Origin: Patescibacteria group bacterium
GTDB lineage: Bacteria; Patescibacteriota; Minisyncoccia; Phycocordibacterales; JACOZG01
Direction: 5' to 3'
Length of the DNA stretch: 58,020 nucleotides
Assembly (NCBI GenBank): GCA_038064435.1
Contig: JBBTTC010000017.1
Location: 1 to 58,020 of the forward strand
A program made the translations under genes and the position numbers. Positions 634-27,786 of the stretch are shown one piece after another (within the stretch, counting starts at the first letter, position 1; each line of letters opens with the position of its first letter). The notes under the pieces are model-generated. The model saw only the letters and a list, made by a program, of their open reading frames with translations. It was not told the origin of the DNA and ran no database searches.

Positions 634-696
634 CGTGAGACAGGTTGGTCTCCTATCTACTGCAGGCGTTGATACTTGAGGGGAGTTGTTTTTAGT

Positions 697-1487
697 AAAA
701 TTTTGCTACTTCGTGGAGTAATCCACGATGACAATTCGGCTAATAACGGTGAAATCTCGATTGGTTTTGGTCTGTTGATAAGTTCGTTTGTTTTAGTCCA
801 ACAAACGTTCTACAATTTACTTGAGGACCAAGATGTCTCGAGACAATACCGTGGGAAGTCGATCTGAGATTGACATGGCTTACATCGCCGGTTTTCTTGA
901 TGGCGATGGTAGTCTCATGCTTCAACTAAAAAGACGTAAAGATGTTAAGTCCCGTACGAGGTTCATGGCGACCGTCTGTTTTTACCAAGACAGTCGACAC
1001 GCCGAACCATTGATCTGGATTAGAAAAATCTTGGGCATCGGTTATATTTTTAACCGCAATGATGGTATGACGGAATTGCGCATTAATGGTTATGAAACCA
1101 TTGCTGTAATCTTACGAAAATTGCTTCCATACATTAAATTCAAAAAAGCTCAAGCCCGAGCTCTTTTGAAAGCCGTCGATATTCTAAGAAAAACACCAAA
1201 ACGTCTCTTGGTTCAAAGCATGCTCTCTGCGGTTGTTGATTCAATAATAAAAATTCAGAGTCACAACTATGCTACCAAAGGGAAAAGAAGCAGAAGGGAA
1301 TTGTTGTCAGTCTTGGGTTTGACCCCGTAACGACTTGTGGCCACCATGATTGGTGGCACAGACTTCGATAAGATCGGAAAGTTCTCTGTTGAGGACAGGA
1401 TTATCGTGGTAATACGCCGATACCCTATCCGCCGTAGGCGGAGGGTAAAGATATAGTCTGCACTCCTGGTGACAGGGGAAGCATGTG
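697..1487 (+). mobile_element. Group I intron, 791 nt, with homing endonuclease, inserted between U2656 and A2657 of the sarcin-ricin loop
   Basis: 5' exon ends in U696 and the intron ends in G1487. P1 TAGT/GCTA with a U.G pair; P2 hairpin TCGTGGA-GTAA-TCCACGA (711-728); P7 ACGACT (1330-1335) / AGTCT (1455-1459) within AAGATATAGTCT. Confidence 0.93.
833..1330 (+). CDS. Single-motif LAGLIDADG homing endonuclease
   Basis: YIAGFLDGDGS motif, downstream VCFYQ, ~165 aa (homodimeric type). ATG 833 is preceded by GAGG. Confidence 0.93.
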   Translation: MSRDNTVGSRSEIDMAYIAGFLDGDGSLMLQLKRRKDVKSRTRFMATVCFYQDSRHAEPLIWIRKILGIGYIFNRNDGMTELRINGYETIAVILRKLLPYIKFKKAQARALLKAVDILRKTPKRLLVQSMLSAVVDSIIKIQSHNYATKGKRSRRELLSVLGLTP

Positions 1488-1783
1488 ACGAGAGGACCGA
1501 AACGAACTGACCTCTGGTCTGAGAGCTGTCGCGCCCGCGGCATCGCTCTGTAGCTATGTCGGGACTGGATAACCTCTGAAAGCATCTAAGAGGGAAGCCA
1601 ACCCCAAGATTAGGTATCGTCCGCCGCAAGGCGGAGCGGCCCCTGGGAGATGACCAGGTTGATAGGCTTTAGGTGTAAGTCCGGTAACGGATTCAGCCGA
1701 GAAGTACTAATCCGCCGTCCTCCTATTAGGAAACCCCAAAATCATTCCGTTAGTTTAATTTTTTTAACATCGAGTCTTTAAAC

Positions 1784-27345: not shown

Positions 27346-27383
27346 CGTGACGAAAGGGACGAAGTGTGCTAGAGTTAACTAGT

Positions 27384-27715
27384 TCGGTGCCGGGTGATCG
27401 TCGTCCGCCCAAAGCTTCGGCCTTGTGGTGGATGAAGGAAAGTCCGAACACTCCTCTGGCTTTCGGGCTAGAGAGCCGGGTAGCAGGTAACGCCTGTCGT
27501 TCGCTTAAAGTCTCGCGACATTATGGCGAACCGAGGTGCGAACAGAGACGAGTCTCCGCCTAAAGCTTTACGGCATTATGGCGGAGGGTGAAACGGCTAA
27601 ATCCTTACCCGAGTGCAAGGCCGTGTCCCGATAAGGGAAGTGCCGCTGGATCCATCAAGCGATTGATGGACAAGATAAATGATCACTTAAACAGAATTCG
27701 GCTTACGAGCGCCGA
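27384..27715 (+). ncRNA. rnpB: RNase P RNA
   Basis: GGAAAGTCC and AACAGAATTCGGCTTA universal P4 motifs; P1 TCGGTGC/GCGCCGA. Confidence 0.94.
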
Positions 27716-27786
27716 TCATTTCAATTTGCTCCAGCTAGTCGCTGGGGCATTTTGATTTTTTGCGCTACGCCGCCCCATAATTTATA

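Follow-up and report, generated by a model that had tools for sequence, protein, structure and literature searches.

A Probably Mobile, IA-Like Group I Intron of the 23IS14 Class in the Sarcin-Ricin Loop of a Patescibacteria 23S rRNA Gene

Locus and Insertion Site

We analyzed a stretch of 58,020 nucleotides (nt) from a Patescibacteria group bacterium (GenBank assembly GCA_038064435.1, contig JBBTTC010000017.1), hereafter the window. Positions 1–1731 of the window are the 3' part of a bacterial 23S ribosomal RNA (rRNA) gene. This gene is interrupted at 697–1487 by an insert of 791 nt, which lies between U2656 and A2657 (Escherichia coli numbering), that is, within the sarcin-ricin loop. The insert carries a full-length open reading frame (ORF, 833–1330) with one LAGLIDADG motif, YIAGFLDGDGS, and its product is matched by Pfam LAGLIDADG_1 (PF00961; E-value 1.8 × 10−8, 35.6 bits versus a cut-off of 23.1). 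Comparison with its homologues shows the insert to be a true group I intron.

With a slash marking each boundary, the left and right junctions read ...GTTGTTTTTAGT(696)/AAAATTTTGCTAC...GCATGTG(1487)/ACGAGAGGACC. When the insert was excised in silico, the exons joined as TTTTTAGT/ACGAGAGGACC, and the sarcin-ricin loop was intact again (UAGU/ACGAGAGGACC). The Rfam model of the bacterial large subunit (LSU) rRNA matched the region with 184.5 bits (E-value 3.9 × 10−58), and it could be aligned only when about 800 nt were skipped after ...UUUUUAGUA. In a permissive scan, the LSU match reached the 3' end of the 23S gene through two skipped blocks, one of about 279 nt after position 358 and one of about 800 nt further on. 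The exon between these two blocks stops within the sarcin-ricin loop, in its 5' half (...UUUUUAGU, with U2656 at position 696).

The numbering of the junction was calibrated on an actual E. coli rrl copy of 2902 nt. The T preceding the junction is nt 2654 of this copy, and the T of the classic L2593 site is nt 2591. Because the copy is two nucleotides short of the canonical numbering, the junction is U2656/A2657. Under this numbering the adenine attacked by ricin is 2660, as expected. The E. coli counterpart of the intron-less target sequence is CTGCTCCTAGTACGAGAGGACCGG. A junction placed one base over was also considered, since A697 and A1488 are both A, and was ruled out by the U·G pair of P1 and the terminal G of the intron.

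Secondary Structure of the Intron

Comparison with over 120 homologous introns, all inserted at this position, supported the core helices of the intron (Table 1). Pair counts were anchor-based and were made on 49 non-identical sequences, and the controls, in which the partner was shifted by 1–2 nt, were 0–65% paired. All six positions of P1 were paired in 49 of 49 sequences (100%, shifted partners 0–33%). The U·G pair was present in each of them, and the guide sequence UUGCUA of P1 was invariant. P4 was 99.6% paired, including one A-U swap. P3 was 91% paired, with one position being U-A in 23 sequences and C-G in 22, and P5 was 82% paired with U-A/C-G swaps. The 3 base pairs (bp) of P9.0 were 90.5% paired and showed compensatory swaps at two places (A-U/G-U/G-C and C-G/U-A).

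The hairpins gave a similar picture. In each of the 12 loci displayed, P2 was a 6–7-bp hairpin capped by a GNRA loop, with stem sequences that differed, and its median minimum free energy was −7.8 kcal/mol over 49 loci. P9 was a GNRA-capped hairpin with stems differing among the loci examined, and P5a/P5b, P7.1, P7.2, and P8 recurred as hairpins with compensatory changes across loci. RNAalifold, applied to a simple MAFFT alignment of the introns with their ORFs trimmed, independently gave P1–P6, P8, and P9; it is blind to P7 because of the pseudoknot between P7 and P3.

Both strands of P6 and the 5' strand of P7, A(C)GACU, were invariant in the ORF-containing copies (P7 in 49 of 49). The P7 pairing A(C)GACU/AGUCU and the J8/7 segment AAGAUAU are present and invariant in the 49 sequences, and hence show no covariation. 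In ORF-less copies, a short loop caps P6, as in locus L133 (GGGAAGUCCGAU-GCAA-AUCGGACCCC), and in the ORF-less locus L137 the P6 strands are swapped from GUC/GAC to GAC/GUC. P6 is thus established by these copies, which also locate the ORF in loop L6. Another candidate for P7, cAGACU at 1360–1364, was rejected because this motif is unconserved in the homologues, whereas AACGACU at 1329–1335 is invariant.

The geometry of P7 was compared with that of the Tetrahymena P7, and G1332-C1458 is presumed to be the guanosine-binding pair. The extension formed by P7.1 and P7.2 points to an IA-like architecture. An extension of this type has been described for cyanobacterial L2593 introns and for the intron of phage Twort (PMC1995217).

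An earlier note on this DNA, made from the sequence alone, had placed the insertion between U2656 and A2657 in the sarcin-ricin loop, and had ascribed to the intron a splice-site U in a P1 with a U·G pair, a terminal G, a P7 pair, and an intact LAGLIDADG ORF. The LSU alignment and the rrl numbering agree with this placement, and the Pfam match above its cut-off agrees with the ORF. The description in the note thus holds in all its details, and the intron features are U696·G705 in a 6-bp P1, G1487 (with G also at the end of 73 of 73 delimited homologues), and A(C)GACU at 1330–1335 with AGUCU at 1455–1459.

We also found that a subset of the homologues (L003, L005–L007, L014, L019–L020, and others) has a P1 loop expanded by an extra GC-rich hairpin, for example AGGCCCUUCAGGGCU, ahead of the guide UUGCUAC. 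This hairpin is absent from the window intron.

Table 1. Coordinates in the window of the exons, the intron, its predicted helices, and its ORF.
Feature	Position	Strand	Basis or remark
23S exon between the two introns	634–696	+	63 nt; Rfam LSU alignment, E. coli numbering
Group I intron at L2656	697–1487	+	791 nt; first base A697, omega G1487
P1	693–698/703–708	+	5' splice-site U696 pairs with G705
P2	711–717/722–728	+	7 bp; GNRA tetraloop GUAA 718–721; folding, RNAalifold
P3	736–740 (UCGGC)/1416–1420 (GCCGA)	+	P3/P7 pseudoknot; covariation, RNAalifold
J3/4	741–745	+	UAAUA
P4-P5 domain	746–852	+	pair counts, domain folds
P4	746–750/848–852	+	pair counts
P5	755–760/838–843	+	pair counts
P5a	764–773/825–834	+	contains GGACC of invariant UUGAGGACC
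P5b hairpin	781–811	+	domain fold
Homing endonuclease ORF	833–1330	+	165 amino acids; stop UAA 1328–1330
P6	853–860 (GGG-AA-GUC)/1321–1326 (GAC-CCC)	+	invariance, ORF-less copies, RNAalifold
P7	1330–1335 A(C)GACU/1455–1459 AGUCU	+	bulged C1331; A1330 is the last base of the stop codon
P7.1	1336–1346/1351–1360	+	peripheral hairpin between P7 and P3'
P7.2	1363–1386/1391–1409	+	peripheral hairpin between P7 and P3'
P8 hairpin	1421–1433/1437–1447	+	folds, RNAalifold
J8/7	1448–1454	+	AAGAUAU
P9.0	1460–1462 (GCA)/1484–1486 (UGU)	+	pair counts
P9	1463–1468/1473–1478	+	GNRA loop GUGA
Terminal (omega) G	1487	+	conserved in homologues
3' exon	1488–1731	+	Rfam LSU alignment; A2657 onward (ACGAGAGGACC), through the 23S end

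Endonuclease Gene and Its Product

Loop L6 holds most of the ORF. From its AUG at 833, the ORF crosses P5', P4', and the 5' strand of P6, and it ends with ...UUG ACC CCG UAA, in which the last codons are the 3' strand of P6 and J6/7. This overlap with P5', P4', P6, and P7 explains the invariant peptide ends, GSRS... and ...GLTP, in the protein alignment. The in-frame GTG at 851, at the end of P4', corresponds to the annotated start in many homologues, and therefore the true start is uncertain.

Database searches with the 165-residue protein returned 2880 homologues. When a profile of the family was compared with the PDB, the closest solved structures were I-MsoI, I-CvuI, and I-CreI (E-values 1 × 10−16 to 1 × 10−21 for each single chain). 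The AlphaFold2 model had a mean predicted local distance difference test (pLDDT) score of 87.8 and a predicted template modelling (pTM) score of 0.82. A Foldseek search with this model gave template modelling (TM) scores of 0.73–0.79 against I-CvuI, I-MsoI, and I-CreI (E-values 2 × 10−13 to 1 × 10−11, 22–31% identity).

Residues D25, Q52, and K104 align with D20, Q47, and K98 of I-CreI. They are invariant in 18 sequences (the window protein and 17 homologues), and 57 further columns are invariant as well, with the relatives being 57–66% identical. Sequence and predicted model place the protein among the single-motif LAGLIDADG enzymes of I-CreI/I-MsoI/I-CvuI type, and its catalytic residues are intact. 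By analogy, such a single-motif enzyme is expected to act as a homodimer.

Distribution and ORF Decay

When one genome per species was scanned with the protein, at least 507 species-representative genomes of Patescibacteria proved to carry a relative. For the 80 loci returned, every title that names a taxon names the candidate phyla radiation (CPR) or Patescibacteria, and several titles go no further than "bacterium" or "uncultured bacterium". An identical junction, with the intron ends A...G, was found in 73 of 81 sequences recovered by means of the protein (intron lengths 724–1040 nt). It likewise recurred in 67 of 80 metagenome loci that were picked by the pattern of the 3' junction, independently of the protein. 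The remaining 8 and 13 sequences were not delimited, and most of those from metagenomes are cut by the end of a contig. An identical protein occurs on 7 independent contigs from several samples, which are 0.1–0.2 µm filter fractions of Hainich groundwater and assembly GCA_964356735.1.

The 67 metagenome introns form a length continuum of 292–847 nt. A LAGLIDADG ORF is present in 48 of them and the motif is lacking in the other 19, and ORF remnants of 69 and 107 residues also occur. The minimal ORF-less L2656 introns are 292–390 nt long and have the same core. Intermediate metagenome copies of 430–620 nt carry ORF remnants. Together, the ORF-less and remnant copies (among loci L085–L164, for example L094, L133, L154, L118, L137, and L143) are natural deletion variants, by which the minimal ribozyme is defined. 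The decay from full to ORF-less copies also supports, at the level of sequence, a homing cycle.

Proposed Splicing and Homing Mechanism

Group I introns are spliced in a reaction initiated by guanosine, and LAGLIDADG enzymes drive homing through a double-strand break that causes the intron to be copied into empty alleles. The window intron would follow this scheme. It would fold within the precursor rRNA, and an external guanosine would attack following U696, which the U·G pair keeps in P1. P9.0 would then put the terminal G1487 into the P7 pocket, and ligation of the exons would give an intact sarcin-ricin loop. The ORF in L6 would supply an I-CreI-type endonuclease that cuts 23S rDNA lacking the intron, at TAGT/ACGAGAGG or close by. 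The break would be repaired from an intron-containing copy, by which the intron is copied in, and later decay and loss of the ORF would complete the cycle.

We infer splicing in vivo from the structure. According to one study, a single cut bond in the sarcin-ricin loop inactivates ribosomes (PMC2896532), and therefore the exons must be re-ligated. Tsurumaki et al. state that CPR bacteria usually have a single 23S gene (PMC11270868). The conserved, covarying core, the inactivation of ribosomes by a loop break, and the usually single 23S gene together argue for true splicing and not for excision without ligation.

Cleavage of DNA, with a target in the sarcin-ricin-loop DNA, is inferred by analogy with the related enzymes. 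Among the host genes, the right half-site ACGAGAGGACC is invariant. To the left of the junction TAGT alone is constant, and the stretch from −5 to −12 varies along with the stem of helix 95; at −5 the window has T, whereas 66 of 73 hosts have C. A "very broad homing range", as the earlier note put it, would be plausible for bacteria. A scan for dyad symmetry placed the best center at the insertion site. A second dyad peak, at +4, proved to be merely the helix 95 hairpin, and the I-CreI-like target geometry (center at +3) was discarded for its poor dyad score.

The start of the ORF lies in the P4-P5 domain, in which the segments 772–776, 796–799, and 821–835 are of note. The sequence UUGAGGACCAG is nearly invariant, and its GGACC pairs with GGUCY in P5a. 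The conserved P5b loop GGUCC (GUCC in the window) is complementary to the same GGACC strand. In the window, P5a buries the Shine-Dalgarno-like GAGGA (823–827) together with A833 and U834 of the AUG at 833–835, and the stop codon abuts P7. Competition of P5a and P5b for GGACC could be an alternative pairing or a control of endonuclease expression, as far as the sequence pattern suggests.

Two further readings may be put forward tentatively, and we think them rather less probable than not. The first is that the enzyme recognizes sarcin-ricin-loop DNA, with its dyad on the junction GTAC, and tolerates the variation of helix 95. The second is that expression of the enzyme is gated by folding of the ribozyme. 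If the first is true, the enzyme could cut the 23S rDNA of most bacteria and would be a new natural meganuclease specificity. If the second is true, translation and splicing would be mutually exclusive states.

For the element as a whole, we consider it very likely that 697–1487 is a mobile IA-like group I intron at U2656/A2657 of the CPR/Patescibacteria 23S gene and belongs to the abundant class at 23IS14 (position 2657). This reading is carried by the site, the covarying RNA fold, the family, fold, and catalytic residues of the protein, and the abundance and decay series of the relatives.

Several points weigh against it. In the ORF-containing copies P6 and P7 are invariant, and covariation for them comes from the ORF-less copies only. 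P10 was not found, as the P1 loop and the guide extension showed no complementarity to ACGAGA. The Rfam scan of the window at the gathering threshold gave zero group I matches. In the permissive scan, the model Intron_gpI (RF00028) scored 27.8 bits (E-value 1.1 × 10−4), below its gathering score of 50, and its alignment was sensible in J8/7, P7', and P9 only. The covariance-model search that the earlier note had proposed as a check thus gave a partial match, and the score did not reach the threshold. The 5' half was misaligned because the 470-nt insert in L6 and the P7.1/P7.2 hairpins find no room in the model. The dyad symmetry expected for the target of a homodimer is weak, since the symmetric positions average 5.2 of 11 and number 4 of 11 in the window; therefore, the cleavage position is not predictable. 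Finally, splicing and cleavage at this site are predictions from structure and homology.

Alternative Explanations

The alternative that survives best is that the intron splices but its endonuclease no longer drives homing. The enzyme would be a decaying passenger or would be kept for a different function, for instance as a maturase that aids folding of the RNA, and the intron would be inherited only vertically in this lineage. Copies with a missing or shortened ORF are indeed common (19 of 67 without the motif, and ORFs of 69 and 107 residues), and the T at −5 of the window target departs from the C of 66 of 73 hosts. In addition, one rRNA operon is usual in CPR bacteria (PMC11270868), so an empty target must come from another cell. 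However, the ORF is of full length, and D25, Q52, K104, and 57 further columns are invariant at 57–66% identity, which indicates purifying selection on the enzyme. The ORF-less copies retain the same ribozyme core, and thus the RNA needs no protein in cis. We regard a loss of homing as unlikely, although it deserves more weight than the other alternatives.

It is very improbable that the insert is an intervening sequence (IVS) of the classical bacterial kind, which RNase III excises and whose flanks are not ligated, so that the 23S rRNA is left in fragments. Such short insertions, which are not introns, are indeed reported from other sites of CPR 23S genes, namely 23IS2 and 23IS4 (PMC11270868). 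However, an IVS would not account for the complete covarying group I core, the U·G pair, the terminal G, and P9.0, and the insert has no long flanking stem to serve as an RNase III substrate. An unligated break in the sarcin-ricin loop would also mimic the damage caused by alpha-sarcin (PMC2896532).

An assembly chimera or an rRNA pseudogene is the least probable of all: apart from the origin of the window in a metagenome assembly nothing specific speaks for it, whereas the protein recurs unchanged on 7 independent contigs, which come from several samples, the same junction occurs in more than 130 loci from many studies, and the exons fit the LSU model to the 3' end and are followed by a 5S gene.

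Neighboring Features

A second group I intron, ORF-less and 275 nt long, lies at 359–633, at the classical L2593 site (23IS12), the site of I-CreI. It was matched by the Rfam Intron_gpI model with 43 bits (E-value 2.9 × 10−9), just below the gathering score. Its boundaries were set by intron-less relatives that read CAAACCGT/CGTGAGACAG. An insertion at L2593 is also present in about two thirds of the loci with an L2656 intron. With no more than 63 nt of exon between the two introns, both ribozymes would have to fold and splice within a precursor of about 1.1 kb without interference.

The 5S rRNA gene at 1783–1888 starts about 50 nt past the end of the 23S gene and has 106 nt, compared with 120 positions in the model. 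At 27382–27721, we found a bacterial class A RNase P RNA, which scored 102.9 against a gathering score of 100 and in which several helices are short or missing relative to the model.

Comparison with Known Introns

Tsurumaki, Sato, Saito, and Kanai gave names to 14 sites of frequent insertion in a survey of 348 CPR 23S genes (J Bacteriol 2024, PMC11270868). According to their paper, LAGLIDADG_1 predominates at positions 1917, 1931, 1952, 2593, 2604, and 2657 (23IS6–8 and 23IS12–14), and the group I introns at 23IS9–11, 13, and 14 were previously unreported in other bacteria. The 23IS14 class agrees with the window intron in its site, intron type, single-domain LAGLIDADG_1 ORF, and mixture of ORF-containing and ORF-less copies, and probably also in its host clade. 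The element is a member of this class and is thus already known.

The earlier note had raised the novelty of the site, subject to L2656 introns not being catalogued in number. This novelty does not hold: position 2657 is the frequent site 23IS14 of PMC11270868, relatives occur in at least 507 species genomes, and many L2656 introns are therefore on record. The published catalogue and the abundance of the family remove the claim. We searched the literature for L2656/L2657 insertions and for the sarcin-ricin loop together with CPR introns, and among the papers available to us nothing relevant was found besides Tsurumaki et al. (2024).

What is given for 23IS14 in that paper is a position. In its text, the word "sarcin" occurs 0 times, and the 23S group I introns are described as grouped near the peptidyl transferase center of domain V. 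The text and legends examined contain no secondary structure or enzyme assay for the 23IS14 intron, and per-site counts for 23IS14 were not found in the accessible supplement (PMC11270868). The comparative structure and the sarcin-ricin-loop context presented here add detail and not a new kind of element.

The closest assayed enzyme from these bacteria is I-ShaI of Ca. Shapirobacteria, which is likewise a single-domain LAGLIDADG_1 protein in a CPR 23S group I intron, at 23IS7. I-ShaI is reported to dimerize and to cleave its own insertion site, and it is the sole CPR LAGLIDADG enzyme to have been assayed (PMC11270868). It differs in its rRNA site and in its lineage, with a reported identity of 42% to I-CeuI, whereas the window protein is nearest to I-CvuI, I-MsoI, and I-CreI.

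These three enzymes resemble the window protein in their fold, catalytic residues, size of about 160 residues, and single motif. They are encoded by L2593 introns of green-algal chloroplasts (Cr.LSU, for example), in which the ORF is also in L6. Their target is L2593, whereas the site here is L2656. In contrast to theirs, the window ORF extends into P5', P4', and the two strands of P6 as well, and takes in the first base of P7.

Haugen et al. (2007) have described cyanobacterial L2593 introns that share with the window intron a short P2, a P7.1/P7.2 region of about 65 nt, and a single-motif ORF extending into core helices (PMC1995217). However, these introns lie at the other site and have a short P5, while the window intron has an elaborate P5a/P5b arm.

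Significance

The sarcin-ricin loop is among the most conserved and most damage-sensitive RNA elements. An intron in this loop is a vivid case of the precision of group I splicing, as its hosts usually have one 23S gene. The comparative structure, with an ORF in L6 that overlaps P5', P4', P6, and P7, could guide work on splicing and expression. The recognition sequence of the site-23IS14 enzyme would be a new meganuclease specificity.

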